A stretch of DNA of 64,000 nucleotides, from contig CAKPEV010000001.1 of assembly GCA_934149405.1 (NCBI GenBank), positions 64,685-128,684 of the forward strand, in the 5' to 3' direction. A program made the position numbers and the translations under genes. Numbering within the stretch: position 1 is the first letter of the stretch; each line of letters begins with the position of its first letter. This stretch comes from an uncultured Clostridia bacterium (GTDB taxonomy: Bacteria; Bacillota; Clostridia; TANB77; UBA1234). This document shows, piece by piece, positions 19,964-57,570 of the stretch. A model generated the notes under the pieces. That model saw only the letters and a program-made list of their open reading frames with translations, was not told where the DNA came from and did no database searches.

Positions 19964-19991
19964 ATTATATATTTTCTAAAAAATCTGTCAA
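19964..19991 (-). promoter_or_regulatory. Near-consensus sigma-A promoter (TTGACA-16-TATAAT on the minus strand), about 145 nt upstream of the SLH protein B start.
   Basis: Plus strand tgtcaa at 19986-19991 and attata at 19964-19969. Confidence 0.5.
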
Positions 19992-45117: not shown

Positions 45118-45366
45118 TCTTTTCCCTCCTTCCGAAGCTACACTATATTGTTATTAACCCTCTACTGCATACATCTCAATTGGCCTTCTCTATTTCATAA
45201 CATAAGCTATTATACTTAAGTTTTGTGATATTGTCAATAGCATTAGCAAAAAAATATAGAACTTAAGTTCTGTTTTAGAAAATAATTTATGCTTGCTTTT
45301 TGTCAAAATGTGTGCTAAACTATTTTTCGTAAATTGACTACGATGCGTATAAAGGAGGTGCCAATA

Positions 45367-50191: not shown

Positions 50192-50373
50192 TATTCTATT
50201 CACAAATCTTACACAAATGTATTGTAATATAATCTTAAGGTAATCGTGAATACCTTTAAATAGCAGACTTGATTTTAGGTTCCCCCTTTATAGAGTCTGC
50301 TATTTAATTATTGATTTTTCGGGTATTTACGATTATACTTAACCTAAGAAGTTTTAAATTGAAAGGAATTTTT

Positions 50374-51046
50374 ATGATAGATATAAAAGATATGTCAAAA
50401 ATTTATGAAATGGGAGAAAACAAAGTTTATGCACTTAACCATATAAACCTTCACATAGAAGAGCATGAATTTGTTTCTATTATTGGTCCATCTGGTTCAG
50501 GAAAATCAACACTTATGAATATGCTTGGTTGCCTTGATGTTCCAACTGAAGGAACATATATTTTAGATGGAAAGCCTATTTCAAAAATGAGTGATGACGA
50601 ACTTGCAGATATTAGAAATAATAAAATAGGATTTGTATTCCAAGGATTTAACTTACTCCCAAAGTTAACAGCAATCGAGAATGTTGAATTGCCTTTAATA
50701 TATCAAAATGTACCAGCAAAAGAGCGCCGTGAAAGGGCTTTAAAAGCATTAAAAAGTGTTGGGCTCGAACTAAGAGCAGACCATACTCCGAATGAGCTTT
50801 CTGGTGGACAACAACAAAGAGTTGCAATAGCTAGAGCTTTAATAACAAATCCTCCTCTTATTTTAGCCGATGAACCTACGCGGAAATCTTGATTCTAAAT
50901 CAGGAAAAGAAGTAATGGAAATATTTAAAGAATTAAACTCAAAAGGAAACACGATCGTTTTGATTACACATGACAGCGGTGTTGCCGAGCAAGCAAAAAG
51001 AATAATAAGAATACAAGATGGTGTTTTAACAGAAGTAAATAAATAG
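50374..51046 (+). pseudogene. ABC transporter ATP-binding protein (MacB/LolD-type ATPase) with a 1-nt insertion near 50880-50881 that truncates it after ADEPT. Probably an artefact.
   Basis: Walker [10 protein letters not shown], signature [15 protein letters not shown], Walker B ILADEPT, then the frame break. The downstream frame encodes GNLDSKSG...ITHD. Confidence 0.8.
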
Positions 51047-51061
51047 TATTCATATCACAAA

Positions 51062-51098
51062 AAATCGTAGTGAAGTAATATCCACTACGATTTTTTTA
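51062..51098. terminator. Bidirectional terminator (atcgtagtg/cactacgat plus T7) between the ABC ATPase gene and trxA.
   Basis: Read directly from the sequence. Confidence 0.6.
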
Positions 51099-51108
51099 TA
51101 AGCAAAAC

Positions 51109-51426
51109 CTATTTCATTTCTTCAATCCAATTTGAAAGTTCATCTTCATCTGCGAATCCCACTTGCCTATCTATTTCTTCACCATCTTTAAAAAATATAA
51201 GTGTTGGTACTGATGAAACGCCATAGCGTATTGCAGCATTTTCACTTTCATCAATGTTCACTTTATAAAACTCAACTTCATCACCATATTTTTTTTCTAA
51301 TTCAATAAGCACTGGTGCAAGCATTTGACATGGTGCGCACCAAGTTGCAAAAAAATCTACTACTACTAATCCTTCGTTCTTTAATACCTCATCAATTATT
51401 TGACCTGGTTCTATATGATGTACCAT
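51109..51426 (-). CDS. trxA: Thioredoxin. The start is trimmed to MVHHIEPGQ..., which follows a GGAGGAG RBS.
   Basis: WCAPC active site. Confidence 0.85.
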   Translation of the reverse strand: MVHHIEPGQIIDEVLKNEGLVVVDFFATWCAPCQMLAPVLIELEKKYGDEVEFYKVNIDESENAAIRYGVSSVPTLIFFKDGEEIDRQVGFADEDELSNWIEEMK

Positions 51427-51554
51427 AATTCTCCTCCTCTTCTTTATTGTATTATCGACCATTTAATGATATTTTATTATAAATATATAAAAATAGCAAT
51501 ATATATAAAACAATGGTATAATAAACTTAACTTTATCAAAAGGAGATTGATTTA

Positions 51555-52316
51555 ATGGATACAAGACCAATAGGAATGTTTGATTCAGGTTGCGGTGGAC
51601 TTACTGTTCTAAAAGAATATTTAAAACTAATGCCAAATGAAAATTACATATATTACGGTGATACAGCTCATCTTCCATATGGCGATAAATCTAAAGAAAA
51701 AATTATAGAATTTTCAAGAAATATTGTAGAATTTTTAATTTCAAAAAATGTAAAAATGATTGTTATAGCCTGTGGAACTGCTAGTGCTCAAGCATTTAGT
51801 ACTATTTGTAAAGAATATGATATTCCAATAAAAAATATAATAACTCCAACAGCATCTAGCATAAAAGATGAAAACATTGGTGTTATTGCAACAAAAGGAA
51901 CAATAAAAAGTAATGCTTGGGAAAATGCAATAAAAAAATATAATCCAAATGCAAATGTTATATCACTTGCTTGTCCTCTTTTTGTGCCAATAGTTGAAGA
52001 AGGATTTGCAAAAACACAAATTGCTGATTTGGCAATAAAAGAATATATATCAAAATTTAAAGGAACAAATATCACATCTTTAATTTTAGGTTGTACCCAC
52101 TACCCTATTCTAGAAGACAAAATACAAAAAGAAATAGGAAACGGTGTAAAGCTTGTGAATGCAGGTGTTATCTCTGCATTAGACTCCATAAAATATTTAA
52201 AAGAAAACAACATGCAAAACTTAAACACTGAAAATGGAACTAGAGAATTTTTCACAAGTGATGATTTTGAACTATTTAAAGAAAACGCAAAGCAATTAGG
52301 ATTTGAAATTGAATAA
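51555..52316 (+). CDS. murI: Glutamate racemase.
   Basis: IGMFDSGCGGLTV ... GCTHYP. Confidence 0.9.
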   Translation: MDTRPIGMFDSGCGGLTVLKEYLKLMPNENYIYYGDTAHLPYGDKSKEKIIEFSRNIVEFLISKNVKMIVIACGTASAQAFSTICKEYDIPIKNIITPTASSIKDENIGVIATKGTIKSNAWENAIKKYNPNANVISLACPLFVPIVEEGFAKTQIADLAIKEYISKFKGTNITSLILGCTHYPILEDKIQKEIGNGVKLVNAGVISALDSIKYLKENNMQNLNTENGTREFFTSDDFELFKENAKQLGFEIE

Positions 52317-52486
52317 AAAATTATTATTTTTACTGTGTATATTACGCACTATAACTAATTTGTGTTTTTGCTAAACGATTTCTTAAAAATGGTCTGTTTT
52401 TGCTATTTTTTGTCTTTTTTAGGACGTTTTTTGAACACTTTATATGCATTTTTATAACTGTTTTACATATAATAATATTAGAATTG

Positions 52487-52516
52487 TTGACAATTTTCAT
52501 TATACCATAGTATAAT
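52487..52516 (+). promoter_or_regulatory. Consensus-like sigma-A promoter (TTGACA-18-TATAAT) on the plus strand in the convergent murI / 52574 intergenic region. It would drive transcription antisense into the 3' end of the 52574..53113 gene.
   Basis: ttgacaattttcattataccatagtataat. Confidence 0.4.
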
Positions 52517-52573
52517 AAATGTAACTCAACTACCATGTTGTAGTAGGAGATTCTGGAGACGTTATTGATAAAC

Positions 52574-53113
52574 TTATGTCAATGGCGTCTTCTGCTTTTT
52601 GTATCTTTCATATTTATTTACATATTTTTCTAGCATATTATCATACTCTATATAATATCCTGTAAGTAACAAATTGTAATCTTTCCTTTTTTCTATTATT
52701 ACAATGAATCTAGCATTCTTAAATAAAAAGTATGCCTTTATTTTGTTGTTAATCTTTTCCTCAAAATATAAAATCTTTTCACAATCATTGCAATTTTCGT
52801 TACACGGATAATGTTCTATTATCGCTTTGTTCCAACCAATCCTTGCAGCTCTTTTTGGATCAGGAACCCTATCATTTGGATCATTAGAATTGTGAAACTC
52901 ATCCTTGTGAGTCAAATGAATGAATGCATGCTCATATTTTCCATCCATTGGTGCTCTTCTAAAATTAACAAATTTTCCTTCAAATTTCACCCTATCTTCA
53001 ACAAAATCTTTCTGAAACACCTTATACAATTCATATAAATATTCATTCCATTTGTTATAGTCTTTACACTCTATAATTTCAGGTAACCATTTACATTTAT
53101 TCAAATCTAACAC
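52574..53113 (-). CDS. Hypothetical cytoplasmic protein (179 aa, His/Cys-containing). It overlaps the upstream DUF3800-like gene by 17 nt.
   Basis: An ORF with no recognisable family. Translationally coupled to 53097..53903. Confidence 0.5.
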   Translation of the reverse strand: MLDLNKCKWLPEIIECKDYNKWNEYLYELYKVFQKDFVEDRVKFEGKFVNFRRAPMDGKYEHAFIHLTHKDEFHNSNDPNDRVPDPKRAARIGWNKAIIEHYPCNENCNDCEKILYFEEKINNKIKAYFLFKNARFIVIIEKRKDYNLLLTGYYIEYDNMLEKYVNKYERYKKQKTPLT

Positions 53114-53903
53114 CTACCTGTAAATCTATATGGAATAAATTAAATTTCTTTTCAGATAGTAAAGTACTATTTAATAACGAATAACCGCTTTTATCAGCTA
53201 TATATTTCATCAATTCTGTTTTAGCATTGCTTGAATTCTCTCTTTCAAACATTTCCCTATTTTTATAGCCAATTGCACCTATTAACAAATCTGCTAGTTG
53301 CAATATTGCACTTTCTTGTGAATTAATTGATTGAATTCGTTTTATTGGTTCATATTCAAACTCTTTCATTCTTGTATTAAGATAATTTCGCAAAACTTCA
53401 ACTTTTCGAGCACTTTTAGTATCTTTTATATCTAAATAAATATAATTATCTGCTTTAGGTTCAGCAAGATTTTTAAGTAATTCATAATACATTTTATAAT
53501 ACCAATCATCATGTGTTTGATTAAATCTCTCATGGTCAATTTGATTTTTGTCAATAATCATTGCTCTAAATCTCAACAAATCACTGTTAAAGAAGTAATC
53601 TACTAGTTCTTTATAGTACTTCAACTTTGATGGCGAAACCTTATTCCATTTTATTTCTGTGTTCTCTTTTATTTGATTCTCTAATTTTATAGAAATCAAA
53701 TCTTTTTTTATTGTTTTTCTATCATCTTTTTCACAGATAATCCCACCAAGTATCATATATCTTTGCATATCATGCTCCAAATGACAGCTTTCATCACAAT
53801 ATATATTATATTCCACTAATAACACCTTCTCCCTATAACCTTTCATTTTTTCAATACTCACCAAATTGAATTGTATCATATTTTTCAGCAAAATCCAAAG
53901 CAA
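53097..53903 (-). CDS. DUF3800-like protein. The true start is possibly an internal Met, since the listed start overlaps the end of pgeF.
   Basis: N-terminal ...YNIYCDESCHLEHD resembles the DUF3800 YxDESG start. About 250 aa. Confidence 0.5.
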   Translation of the reverse strand: MLWILLKNMIQFNLVSIEKMKGYREKVLLVEYNIYCDESCHLEHDMQRYMILGGIICEKDDRKTIKKDLISIKLENQIKENTEIKWNKVSPSKLKYYKELVDYFFNSDLLRFRAMIIDKNQIDHERFNQTHDDWYYKMYYELLKNLAEPKADNYIYLDIKDTKSARKVEVLRNYLNTRMKEFEYEPIKRIQSINSQESAILQLADLLIGAIGYKNREMFERENSSNAKTELMKYIADKSGYSLLNSTLLSEKKFNLFHIDLQVGVRFE

Positions 53904-54705
53904 TTACTGCACTTCCAACTCCAAAGTTTGCTCCTTCTACTCTTCTTGAATGTACTTTTTCTGATGAACATACACTACAAATACCAGAATCTAATATATT
54001 TTCTTCTTTTAATCCTTCTTCTTTTAGCAATATTTTATTTATTAGTATTGTGTCTATATTGTATTTTTGTTTTTCTTCAAATACTCTTCCACGTTTTATT
54101 ATTTCATCTAATTTATTAGTGTATTTGAATATTCTTTCACATTCTTCTTTAACATCTGTATCAACCTCAAAGTGGCACACCCTAATCGCCGGACATATGC
54201 AAGCTATTATATCCTCTGGATTTGAGTTGTACTCTTCTTTCATTTTCCTTACTGTTTTTTGTGCTATCTTTTGGAATGTACCTCTCCAACCAGAATGCAC
54301 ATTTGCTATTACATTTTTATTTTTATCATAAAACATTATTAAAATACAGTCTGCATTTGTTGATGCAAGTGTTATTTGAGGTTTGTTTGTTATGCTCGCA
54401 TCAACTCCATCTAAATATTCTAAATATATATCTGGCAAATTTTTATTTTGCTTTTTTTCAATTTTCAGAATATTGTCACTATGTGTTTGATTAGGTTTTA
54501 CAAGTGTTATAGGATTTATTTCTACTGCTTTTAAGAATTTTTCATACTCATTATATTTTGAATCTTCTCCATCTAATCTCCTGAAATTCAACGGTTTTAA
54601 TGCATATGCATGTTTTAAATTTGGATATTCTAATAACCTTCTAAATCTTAAAACTTCAACACCATTTATATTTTCTTGAACAACAATCTCGTTAGATAAA
54701 TCCAT
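53851..54705 (-). CDS. pgeF: PgeF/YfiH-family (DUF152) purine nucleoside phosphorylase / peptidoglycan editing factor.
   Basis: NQTHSDNI...TNADCILIMF...HSGWRGT...CICPAIRVCHFEV. Confidence 0.8.
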   Translation of the reverse strand: MDLSNEIVVQENINGVEVLRFRRLLEYPNLKHAYALKPLNFRRLDGEDSKYNEYEKFLKAVEINPITLVKPNQTHSDNILKIEKKQNKNLPDIYLEYLDGVDASITNKPQITLASTNADCILIMFYDKNKNVIANVHSGWRGTFQKIAQKTVRKMKEEYNSNPEDIIACICPAIRVCHFEVDTDVKEECERIFKYTNKLDEIIKRGRVFEEKQKYNIDTILINKILLKEEGLKEENILDSGICSVCSSEKVHSRRVEGANFGVGSAVIALDFAEKYDTIQFGEY

Positions 54706-54749
54706 AAAATTTAAGCATAACTTTAATGTTATGCTATTCTCCTTTCTAA

Positions 54750-55490
54750 TTATTTATAAAAAACTTTCATCAAGTACAAACCATGTGGTGGCAATGTCTT
54801 GCCGGCTCTGGTTCTGTCACCTGAAAGTATTATATCTTCTATTTCATTTTCATTTATTTTTCCAAGACCGACATCTACTATCGTTCCGCAGACTATTCGC
54901 ACCATATTATATAAAAATCCATCGCCTGTTAGTTCTATTTCTATTTTTCCATCGTGTTCTCTCATTTCTGCCTTTGTTATTGTTCTAACAGTAGTTTTTT
55001 TAGGGCTGCCACCTGATGATTTAAAGCCTTTAAAATCATGCTCTCCCTCAAATTTCTTTAATGCTCTTCTCATAGCCTCTTTATCTAAATGGCTTGGCAT
55101 ATAAAACTCTCTATATCTATCTAGTGCTGATGGAAATTCGTTATTGTTTATAATATATTTATATGTTTTTCCTTTTGCATTATATCTTGAATGAAATCTT
55201 TCATCAACTTCTTCTGCAGATTTTACAACTATGCTCTTAGGAAGTTTGGCATTTAATGCATAAGGTATTTTTTGAATTGGCACTTTCGAATTTGTTTTAA
55301 AATTGGCTGTTTGGCCATAAGCATGAACACCCGCATCAGTTCTGCCTGAAGCTATTATTTCAATATCTTCTCCTGTTACATCTTTTAATGCTCTTTGCAT
55401 TTCTCCTTGTATACTTGTTTTACCAGGTTGAATTTGCCACCCAGCAAAATTTTTTCCGTCATATTCTATTATTATTTTTATATTTCTCAT
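54750..55490 (-). CDS. truA: tRNA pseudouridine(38-40) synthase TruA.
   Basis: IIIEYDGKNFAGWQIQ...ASGRTDAGVHA. Confidence 0.9.
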   Translation of the reverse strand: MRNIKIIIEYDGKNFAGWQIQPGKTSIQGEMQRALKDVTGEDIEIIASGRTDAGVHAYGQTANFKTNSKVPIQKIPYALNAKLPKSIVVKSAEEVDERFHSRYNAKGKTYKYIINNNEFPSALDRYREFYMPSHLDKEAMRRALKKFEGEHDFKGFKSSGGSPKKTTVRTITKAEMREHDGKIEIELTGDGFLYNMVRIVCGTIVDVGLGKINENEIEDIILSGDRTRAGKTLPPHGLYLMKVFYK

Positions 55491-56119
55491 TATTTTATAT
55501 AAACCTTAACTTCCTTTCCATTAACTAGTTTAGCAAATTTTTCGCCATCTTCTTTTTCACCGACAATGCTTCCATAATGAGTTGGGACTACGACATCTGC
55601 TGTGATTTCGTTTGCCAAATATGCTGCCTCATTATAATCCATTGTGTATTTTCCGCCTACAGGCAAAAATGCTACATCGCATTCTATGTTTAATAGTTCA
55701 TCAATAGCATCTGTGTCTCCTGCTATATAATATTTAAGACCATCTAATTCTATTATATAACCAACCCAGTTTTCTTTTTTCTGATGATACATTTTTTCTT
55801 TATTGTATGCTGGCGTTGTTTCAAATTTTATATCATCAATTTCATATTCATTATTAGGCTCTACTATAATAATTTTGTTTTCATCTTGAAACAAACCCCT
55901 AGCCATTCCGTGTGTACACTCTACAGTAATTATTTTGGTCTTTTCATTCATTACTTTTAATATATCTTCTTCTGAAAAATGATCATAGTGCCCATGCGTA
56001 CAAAAAATATAATCTGCATCACTATAATCTTTATCTATCATAAAAGGGTCTATATATATCGTCTTGCTTCCCTCTATTTTTATACTACTATGACATGGAA
56101 GTTTTACATTATCTAACAT
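55490..56119 (-). CDS. MBL-fold metallo-hydrolase.
   Basis: CTHGHYDHFS motif. Confidence 0.8.
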   Translation of the reverse strand: MLDNVKLPCHSSIKIEGSKTIYIDPFMIDKDYSDADYIFCTHGHYDHFSEEDILKVMNEKTKIITVECTHGMARGLFQDENKIIIVEPNNEYEIDDIKFETTPAYNKEKMYHQKKENWVGYIIELDGLKYYIAGDTDAIDELLNIECDVAFLPVGGKYTMDYNEAAYLANEITADVVVPTHYGSIVGEKEDGEKFAKLVNGKEVKVYIK

Positions 56120-56285: not shown

Positions 56286-57570
56286 ATGACGTTTCTTAAA
56301 AATTACAAGCAAACGCTCATCCTGGTAGGATCTATAATTATAGGTGCTATTGTCGGAGTTATTTGGGGAGAAGGAGCTAAGGTGCTTAGCCCACTAGGAG
56401 ACTTATTCATAAACTTAATGTTTATGGTAATCGTTCCTCTTATCTTTTTAACCATTTCAACTTCTATTTCAAAAATCAGCCATCCAAAGAGAGTTGGCAA
56501 AATACTTGGTACAACTGTACTTGTATTCGTTATAACATCAGTAGTTGCGGTCTTAATTGGTCTTGTTTTCACTTTTCCATTTGAGCTTGTTTCAAATACT
56601 GATGGTGCAAAAATCCTTGCTGAGCTTGGTGGCGAAGCAGCTGAAACAGAAGAATTATCTCTTTTACAAAGAACTGTTAGTGTTTTGACAGTAAATGATT
56701 TTTCAAAGTTACTATCAAAAGATAACATTATTGCAATTGTAGTATTCTCTATAATGTTTGGTTGTGCCATGAGAATGGCAGGAGAAAAAGCAAAACCTGT
56801 GCAAAATGTTTTAGAAGCTTTAACAGAAGTAATTATGAAAGTTATAACAATCATAATGTACTATGCACCTATCGGACTTGGTTGCTATTTTGCTTCATTT
56901 ATTCGGTCAATTCGGTGCAAGCATTGCGGTTGGTTATTTAAAAACATTCGTAATCTACACTATCGCTTGTCTTTTCTGTTTCTTTGGTATGTATACATTG
57001 TATGCATTCATCGCGGGAGGCAAAGAAGGTGTTAAAAGATTTTGGAAGTTTGTTTTACCAGCAACATTAACAGCACTTGCAACATGTTCTAGTGCTGCAT
57101 CAATTCCAGTTAACATGCAAACTTCTAAAAATATAGGTGTTTCTGATGATATTGCTGAAACTTTGATTCCTCTTGGAACAAGTTTTCATAAAGATGGTTC
57201 AATAATCGGCTCTGTATTTAAAGCAATGTTTTTGGTATGCTTATTTGGAACAAATGTATACACAGCAGGTGGTGTGCTTCAAATATTAGGTATTTCACTA
57301 ATTGCAACACTTCTTGTAACTGCAGTTCCTATAGGTGGTGGAACAATATCTGAGACAATGATTATAACAATGCTTGGATATCCGCTTACAGCAGTTCCTA
57401 TACTTACAACAATTGCTACAATTATAGATGCACCTGCAACTGTTTTAAATGTTGTTGGTGACAGTGCTTCTTCAATGCTTGCCGCAAGAATAGTTGATGG
57501 TAATGATTGGATGAAGAAAAGCGATTCAGCATCACCATCTAAAGATAAAAAACAAAAAATAAAAGCTTAA
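56286..57570 (+). pseudogene. Dicarboxylate/amino acid:cation symporter (DAACS family) split by a T3 versus T2 homopolymer indel near 56893. Probably an artefact.
   Basis: Two overlapping ORFs whose translations join as ...APIGLGCYFAS(L)FGQFGASIAVGYLK... Confidence 0.75.

Follow-up and report, generated by a model that had tools for sequence, protein, structure and literature searches.

The window analysed here is a 64-kb stretch of DNA (64,000 nucleotides, nt) from an uncultured Clostridia bacterium, and coordinates below are positions in it unless another record is named; loci used for comparison carry L numbers. Between its murI and pgeF genes lies a mobile module of three parts: two overlapping minus strand genes, A and B, and a small RNA (sRNA) gene that converges on them from the plus strand. 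That this is an RlfAB / PDC-M04 module to which an RNA adds a third component is secure, and its protein pair extends a candidate family that was already known. An earlier note, made from the letters of the window alone, had singled out the two genes and a consensus promoter aimed at them as a candidate defence- or toxin-antitoxin-like module. The features of the locus are:

52362..53889, no strand assigned: accessory insert (blastn of window positions 51000-55500 against L065, L063 and L068, gene tables, and the empty-site sequence)
53097..53816, minus strand: gene A, RlfA / PDC-M04A / DUF3800 homologue, 239 amino acids (aa) from GTG 53816, or 249 aa from ATG 53846
52574..53113, minus strand: gene B, RlfB / PDC-M04B homologue, 179 aa from GTG 53113, or 176 aa from TTG 53104
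52521..52603, plus strand: sRNA gene, predicted start near 52523, about 80 nt (covariance model R1, 92.3 bits, E 2.1e-15)
52487..52516, plus strand: sRNA promoter TTGACA-18-TATAAT, 12/12 consensus match
52458..52486, plus strand: A/T-rich box upstream of the -35 element, consensus TTTTGCATAAAATA..TAGAATTG (MAFFT alignment of 13 Clostridia-type loci)
52525..52549, plus strand: hairpin 1, a CUC..GAG closing stem and ACUAC/GUAGU, then the GGAG..CUG linker, with compensatory pair changes
52555..52602, plus strand: hairpin 2, the intrinsic terminator, stem 52555..52592 and U-tract 52593..52602 (terminator scan)
52574..52603, no strand assigned: overlap of the sRNA 3' end with the C-terminal codons of B (..KKQKTPLT and stop), synonymous sites frozen

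The insert and its protein pair

The insert, window 52362..53889 (1528 bp), is strain-variable, and its limits follow from comparison with contigs chosen because they encode a MurI identical to that of the window (L065, which has the empty site, L063 and L068). In L065 the flanking DNA is 97.6-99.1% identical to that of the window and the murI-pgeF gap is 137 bp, a spacer that holds a bidirectional terminator. The neighbours are housekeeping genes: murI and trxA flank the insert at one end, pgeF (Cu-oxidase_4), truA and an MBL-fold gene at the other. This same-site presence/absence polymorphism bears out the proposal that the pair is an accessory insert among them. Positions 51000-55500 are 100% identical in L064, from a Hadza gut metagenome. 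Other cargo occupies the murI-pgeF site elsewhere, a 182-aa membrane protein in L063 and L066 and a HicB-like gene in L068. The insert gives pgeF a new C-terminus by replacing its last codons (284 aa, versus 272 aa without the insert), and its GC content does not differ from that of the flanks.

We note that the murI-pgeF spacer, window 52317..53889, is a cargo hotspot, either empty or occupied by the A-B-sRNA module, by a membrane protein or by a HicB-like gene, and as such it is a mapped accessory-gene hotspot in an uncultured gut Clostridia lineage. In L068, the contig with the HicB-like cargo, pgeF is broken into open reading frames (ORFs) of 183 and 94 aa.

Gene A is DUF3800-like, as the earlier note had it (PF12686, E 5e-17; 63.4 bits against a gathering cut-off of 21), and has the N-terminal DE and C-terminal QxxD motifs of that family. 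GTG 53816 is its likely start because most homologues are 239 aa long, the length that this start gives, and because it is preceded by GGGAGAAGG; a start at 53903 (TTG, 268 aa), as first drawn, over-extends the gene into pgeF. Residues D8, E9, Q173 and D176 are invariant in 41 sequences, and D129 and D132 are invariant as well. NCBIfam has no family for A; the PADLOC PDC-M04A model PDLC04353 matches it over nearly its full length (E 3.5e-88). The view that DUF3800 proteins lack an assigned function is superseded by the published RNase H2-like fold (PMC7736814), which structure prediction confirms here: the predicted structure of A has an RNase H2/H3-like core, and its fold neighbours also include PIWI/Argonaute and Cas9 RuvC domains. 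The conservation of carboxylates D8, E9, D129/D132 and D176 is at the level of the sequence alignment, and the DUF3800 site has been described as rearranged (PMC10910872, PMC7736814).

The start of gene B decides its overlap with A, 17 nt from GTG 53113 and 8 nt from TTG 53104. Relatives show 8 nt, so the reported overlap itself stands and its 17-nt length holds only with the GTG start. Pfam and NCBIfam have no family for B, and searching PDB sequences with the B profile matched nothing. The protein was at first taken to belong to no recognisable family; it is in fact PDC-M04B, the family of phage P1 RlfB (PADLOC model PDLC04355, E 9.6e-47, adjacent to A and on the same strand; hhalign 99%), and it also matches phrog_16230. 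Structure prediction of both proteins, recommended earlier as a check, gives the RNase H2/H3-like result for A and, for B, a model (pLDDT 87.9) with weak RelE/HigB/colicin D-like matches only (best Foldseek match HigB1, E 0.036), so a RelE/HigB-like fold of B is a weak lead and not an assignment. The wider B superfamily comprises 1242 cluster representatives at E<=1e-3. The C-terminal tail QKTPL is invariant apart from distant B subfamilies, which lack it and were examined for the sRNA through P1, P7, Bbif-1 and Methylobacterium.

The suspected association of the pair with defence is supported by the matches of both proteins to PADLOC PDC-M04 and by relatives that lie inside BREX and beside type I restriction-modification. 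The gene order is BrxC / A / B / PglX-like in L073 and L074, methylase / A / B / SNF2 / PglZ in L071 and L072, and A / B / Fic / hsdM-S-R (type I restriction-modification) in L007; in L011 AAA_21, an MBL-fold gene and an integrase lie near the pair. According to Payne et al. (10.1101/2024.01.29.577857), PDC-M04 is one of 145 candidate systems, which were predicted from gene cassettes that lie within BREX, DISARM and type I restriction-modification systems. We found no other paper naming PDC-M04 in the literature searched.

The small RNA at the 3' end of gene B

The promoter at 52487..52516 is indeed aimed at the 3' end of the pair and matches the consensus at all twelve positions. Its TTGACA is invariant, and its -10 element nearly so, in 13/13 Clostridia-type loci; the A/T-rich box before it (52458..52486) is possibly an UP element or an operator, and upstream of that box between-locus conservation ends. 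Four perfect consensus promoters occur in the window where shuffles give 0.17 (about 24-fold more than expected). The other three (TTGACA-N16-18-TATAAT) are all on the minus strand, at 19964..19991, 45209..45237 and 63548..63577.

Downstream of this promoter the plus strand has an intrinsic terminator, the stem at 52555..52592 followed by TGCTTTTTGT, so the transcript is predicted to be a discrete RNA of about 80 nt. An antisense RNA over the 3' end of B had been anticipated from the promoter; a conserved RNA is indeed there, not a run-on transcript but a terminated, structured sRNA of about 80 nt. Its 3' arm and U-tract are the antisense of the last codons and stop of B, and the overlap is limited to the stop codon and the last eight or nine codons. 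The terminator scan of the locus found no minus strand terminator after B, so the A-B mRNA probably reads through the RNA gene. Covariance model R1 finds a single copy in the window, at the sRNA. We note that in L034, L036 and L039 (rabbit-gut Bacilli metagenome-assembled genomes and one viral contig) extra hairpins, for example GGAAGCGATATGCTTCG, stand at the usual promoter position and a TTGACA promoter is found some 70 nt upstream of it; this points to a form of the RNA with an extended 5' end.

From promoter to terminator the unit has hardly changed among loci with unrelated neighbours and B proteins of 65-75% identity. A simple motif detects the sRNA in 36/36 loci retrieved via protein B, which include 18 species-representative gut metagenome-assembled genomes (Clostridia, Bacilli and Tenericutes), and an RNA-pattern search yielded 24 additional loci, the majority with A and B convergent. 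Among 30 distinct sequences the two-hairpin structure has 96% of cells paired, against 42-54% in slid controls, and eight pairs change on both sides, with a covariation score of 0.358 against 0.06-0.12 in the controls. Hairpin 2 contributes 15 pairs (98% paired, 5 covarying), and RNAalifold adds the CUC/GAG closing stem, covarying to AUC/GAU. The structure belongs to the promoter's strand because, read from the opposite strand, its invariant U.G pair and its frequent G.U pairs would turn into C.A. The sRNA of the window has a fold energy of -28 kcal/mol (z -4.96). Its single-stranded parts are invariant and no variable "guide" segment is present. Codon choice in the tail of B is also frozen in 25 distinct frames, where Gln is CAG in 25/25 (41% elsewhere), Thr is ACG in 25/25 (14% elsewhere) and Pro is CCA in 25/25 (58% elsewhere).

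At least 90% of sequences have UAA in the loop of hairpin 2 (window about 52570..52577), among them phage copies in which no B stop lies at that place, and the window itself has UAU; Weinberg et al. 2017 found UAA to be common in DUF3800 RNA motifs (PMC5737381). No Rfam family matches at the sRNA (E<=10 in a 201-nt scan, E<=1 in a 4-kb scan) with a library that includes DUF3800-VII, DUF3800-VIII and drum, which it matched elsewhere. The sole Rfam matches near the sRNA are a spurious RT-6, on the opposite strand and across the promoter, and chance snoRNA/miRNA matches. A small peptide encoded in the RNA was considered and rejected, since loop length varies by non-multiples of three and the changes are compensatory at the RNA level. 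A k-mer complementarity test for a second sRNA target in the A-B mRNA found nothing consistent across 15 loci.

Relatives in P1 and other phages, and RNA without the pair

No full-length B homologue among those examined lacks an adjoining sRNA; they include homologues from Clostridia, Bacilli, a Bifidobacterium phage, Methylobacterium, P1 and P7. The RNA accompanies the gene pair in four bacterial phyla. By tblastn against GenBank phages B is homologous to P1 RlfB, P7 RapB and an unannotated ORF of Bifidobacterium phage Bbif-1; about 100 plasmid records also match, nearly all from Escherichia and Salmonella, mostly ~75-150 kb in size and apparently P1-like. P1 RlfA and RlfB match the same PADLOC PDC-M04 models (1e-95 and 1.3e-51), gene A is 45% identical to P1 RlfA (BLASTP, E 2e-69), and hhalign joins the B profile to P1 RlfB with 99% probability (E 6e-18). 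The P1 record annotates rlfA as a DUF3800 protein and both genes as "possibly associated with lytic replication".

The covariance model, which was built from gut sequences, also finds the sRNA beside B proteins only 43-44% identical. In P1 it places the sRNA at the rlfB stop codon, between rlfB and pmgF (43 bits, E 6.5e-7); the candidate lies at about 52904-52979 on the complement strand of NC_005856.1 (L075 3428-3503), where the record annotates nothing, and has a TTGAAA-17-TAGATT promoter and a terminator. The scores are 39 bits in P7, 40 bits in Bbif-1 and 32 bits in a GC-rich replicon of Methylobacterium bullatum, where the ORFs next to the sRNA resemble A and B in size and tblastn matches the B-sized one to B. 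Rfam models give no match (E<=1) at the P1 and Bbif-1 sRNA loci. In the cross-phylum alignment of 15 sequences, which is model-fitted and so leans to the structure, 16/24 pairs change on both sides and 95.7% of cells are paired. Hairpin 1 and the GGAG linker are conserved across phyla; of hairpin 2 the position and the pairing persist while the sequence changes.

The RNA is under purifying selection also without A and B, in decayed loci and in phages. L043 and L054 share one site at which B is pseudogenised by stop codons and A is absent, and in L045 B is cut to 105 aa and A is absent; in all three the sRNA and its promoter are intact, the RNAs scoring about 92 bits. These chromosomal relics lie at L043 4830-5234, L054 2368-2592 and L045 2215-2640. 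In the phage or prophage contigs L037, L038, L049 and L070 the RNA directly follows the endolysin gene and has a TTAACA-17-TATACT promoter of its own; moron-type genes, HicAB and AbrB-like ones for example, are its neighbours, and B is reduced to a 12-codon "NIKKYKKQKTPL" relic. That such a phage copy serves as an attachment site was rejected; L070 has three ORFs and about 2 kb between the RNA and host DNA, and full-length copies with their own promoter also contradict the idea.

A hairpin-1 scan of viral contigs gave at least 120 matches, against about 17 estimated by chance, and the covariance model confirms 55 among the 80 viral loci listed. Among these 55, A and B are convergent with the RNA in 20, no A/B-like ORF lies in the stored 3-14 kb in 23, A and B share the strand of the RNA in L081 and L107, L143 has a 50-aa B relic, and the remainder are too near the locus edge to classify. 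About 27 of the phage contigs covered have the RNA alone, often beside the structured RNAs and tRNA arrays described below. In L081 (~8024-9435) and L107 (~2138-3497), where RNA and pair are co-directional, the sRNA begins about 70-85 nt past the B stop and has a TTGACA/TATACT promoter of its own. The antisense overlap is therefore not essential, and, as the phage copies that have neither A nor B also show, this overlap, to which the earlier note had drawn attention, is not what is conserved.

Several orphan copies lie close to other structured RNAs. DUF3800-VIII RNA is 52-56 nt from orphan copies in L155 (4146-4332), L111 (3296-3484) and L132 (8947-9135), DUF3800-VII RNA is 118 nt away in L090 (2653-2931), abiF RNA is 133 nt away in L114 (10230-10468), and drum RNA and tRNAs are close by in L106 (5820-6380). 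In L152, L140, L154, L093, L134, L148 and L124 orphan copies are inside or beside phage tRNA or tmRNA arrays. We note that L155, L111, L132, L090, L114 and L106 hold tandem "ncRNA islands" with no DUF3800 gene in the stored locus.

Possible roles of the RNA and comparison with known systems

With moderate confidence, we favour the reading that A-B may be a nuclease pair, toxin-like or abortive-infection-like, that is held in check by a trans-acting RNA antidote which phages have copied. A and B would together form a nuclease-type effector, toxic or causing an abortive-infection-like response. The sRNA, abundantly transcribed, would be the antidote in trans, probably binding the proteins through its invariant hairpin 1 and linker; an infection that halts or depletes the sRNA would release the effector, and phages would respond with an RNA copy of their own, carried among other defence-associated RNAs and tRNAs. 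An antidote acting in trans is suggested because the RNA persists without A-B, as in decayed loci and phages, because its orientation to B varies and its conserved hairpin lies outside the coding sequence, and because phages set their orphan copies among defence-associated RNAs. The position of these copies, near such RNAs and near tRNA arrays, suggests that they are phage RNA decoys. The same facts fit a cis-antisense RNA or an obligatory cofactor less well.

Several points weigh against an antidote. The literature searched holds no experimental evidence that PDC-M04 or RlfAB is toxic or anti-phage, and we found no test of PDC-M04 in the main text of 10.1101/2024.01.29.577857. P1 rlfA is behind a C1-controlled operator, next to repL, and carries the annotation of a possible link to lytic replication. 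The orphan phage RNAs could serve another phage function that RlfAB systems exploit, and an RNA cofactor could persist by working with unlinked proteins. The stored viral loci span 3-14 kb, and A and B could lie farther off on some contigs. Binding of the sRNA to the proteins is pure inference.

The sRNA might instead be an obligatory cofactor, the structural or guide subunit of an RNase H/PIWI-like A-B-RNA ribonucleoprotein, needed for target recognition or activity and not as an inhibitor. Its presence beside every full-length B examined would be expected of such a subunit, and PIWI/Argonaute, Cas9 RuvC and RNase H2/H3 are among the fold neighbours of A; TPR-DUF3800 proteins are moreover found with Cas12a2/a3 loci (PMC10910872, PMC13594972). 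We nevertheless regard this as unlikely, because the single-stranded parts of the RNA are invariant and offer no variable "guide" segment, because the RNA stays intact where A is lost and B has decayed, and because the many phages with the RNA alone are hard to explain unless their copies are dominant-negative.

Less likely still is a type I-like cis-antisense RNA, which would pair with the 3' end or 3' untranslated region of the A-B mRNA and alter its stability, phage copies then silencing in trans. The models for this are txpA/RatA and bsrG/SR4 of Bacillus subtilis. The RNA does converge on B and overlap its end in the window and most loci, the absence of a minus strand terminator probably carries the mRNA through the RNA gene, and phage copies still have the arm that can pair with the codons for QKTPL. 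However, the RNA of L081 and L107 is downstream of B on the same strand with its own promoter, and in P1, Bbif-1 and Methylobacterium it is hairpin 2 and the B C-terminus that have diverged while hairpin 1, outside the coding sequence, is conserved. Pairing would not need a linker and loop that are invariant across proteins 26-45% identical, the k-mer test in 15 loci gave no conserved second target in the A-B mRNA, and A and B are not small membrane peptides.

A replication-associated role in line with the P1 annotation, in which the RNase H-like enzyme and RNA process primers or R-loops during replication of the element, appears very improbable. It accords with the RNase H2-like fold and with the position of rlfA-rlfB (P7 rapA-rapB) after repL/oriL behind the C1 operator in P1 and P7. 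The insert in the window, however, has no replication, integration or other mobile-element genes, and homologues are co-directional inside BREX and restriction-modification operons. Moreover, rlfA and rlfB were non-essential in a P1 CRISPRi screen (PMC10695390), and in P1-like plasmids different cargo stands in for the rlfA-rlfB-pmgF segment (PMC6906374). That the locus is a functionless coincidence of a consensus promoter with an ordinary terminator can be dismissed: sites matching at >=9/12 in this AT-rich DNA are no commoner than chance (26 found, 30 expected), but perfect matches are about 24 times expectation in the window, and conservation of the unit with covariation in four phyla and unrelated contexts already refutes it.

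The literature searched holds no description of the sRNA, its cross-phylum conservation (P1 included) or its orphan phage copies. There is a substantial chance that the sRNA opens a broader class. We suggest tentatively, as a possibility short of an even chance, that it and the "DUF3800 RNA motifs" are one class of antidotes or switches of a very large family of RNase H-like defence nucleases, RlfAB among them, and that phages assemble "RNA antidote islands", in which orphan copies of such RNAs lie next to tRNAs and abiF RNA, as a general counter-defence. If true, they would make up an RNA-protein immune system separate from retrons, from CRISPR and from toxin-antitoxin systems of types I and III, and RNA motifs left without a function since they were described in 2017 would gain one. 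The locus in any case connects P1 rlfA/rlfB, PADLOC PDC-M04 and the 2017 association of DUF3800 with structured RNAs. If the sRNA matters, clones that contain only the two ORFs, or clones with a cut 3' flank, could mislead on toxicity or on a lack of defence.

Two other genes of the window are each present as a pair of overlapping ORFs. The ABC-transporter ATPase gene at 50311..51046 (193 and 58 aa) is likewise split in related contigs (172 aa and 43 or 58 aa), and this may be a frameshift or a programmed feature. The sodium:dicarboxylate symporter (SDF) gene at 56286..57570 (249 and 235 aa) is a single 427-aa gene in L003 and two ORFs, of 249 and 193 aa, in L063, so its frameshift is strain-variable.

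Among known systems the nearest is rlfA-rlfB of P1 (P7 rapA-rapB), which has the same gene order, overlapping reading frames and PADLOC models and a homologous convergent sRNA, with promoter and terminator, at the rlfB stop. It differs in its location, on a phage-plasmid next to repL and under C1 control, in that RlfB lacks the QKTPL tail, and in that hairpin 2 has another sequence. Both proteins match PDC-M04, relatives of which are embedded in BREX and beside type I restriction-modification; PDC-M04 is, however, defined as two proteins, in a paper whose main text makes no mention of an RNA (10.1101/2024.01.29.577857), and the instance in the window stands alone in a housekeeping hotspot and is not embedded in another system.

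Another 11 structured RNAs are known to accompany DUF3800 genes, at either end of the gene and in both orientations (PMC5737381). Like the new sRNA, the DUF3800-I to XI, drum and skipping-rope motifs of that report are structured RNAs next to DUF3800 with an intrinsic terminator and in either orientation, the UAA triplet is common in the loop, and in phages the new RNA lies 52-118 nt from DUF3800-VII/-VIII. It nevertheless matches none of their Rfam models and is tied to the 3' end of B.

The likeness to type I or type III toxin-antitoxin modules that the earlier note had seen survives as a functional resemblance; membership does not, as each type has defining features that the module lacks. 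Type I toxins are small hydrophobic peptides, whereas A (239 aa) and B (176-179 aa) are predicted soluble alpha/beta folds; the RNA is antisense in the window and most loci, but on the same strand in L081 and L107. ToxIN, of type III, shares the proposed logic of a protein effector neutralised by a small structured RNA with strong signals of its own; it is also defence-associated and has RNA-only copies in phages, a phage pseudo-ToxI RNA being known to imitate the ToxIN antitoxin (PMC3475682). ToxI, however, consists of upstream tandem repeats, whereas here each locus has one RNA copy, downstream of B and usually convergent, and the place of a ToxN-type RNase is taken by two proteins, one RNase H-like in fold and the other possibly RelE-like.

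Type VII retrons, finally, resemble the module described here in that both are defence-type modules which join an RNase H2-like DUF3800 protein, the effector in the retrons, to a structured nucleic acid of their own (PMC7736814). The two differ in that the present module has no reverse transcriptase (RT) and no msr/msd, only a plain sRNA and protein B. In retrons the RT-msDNA acts as antitoxin, a role analogous to that of the RNA antidote proposed here.

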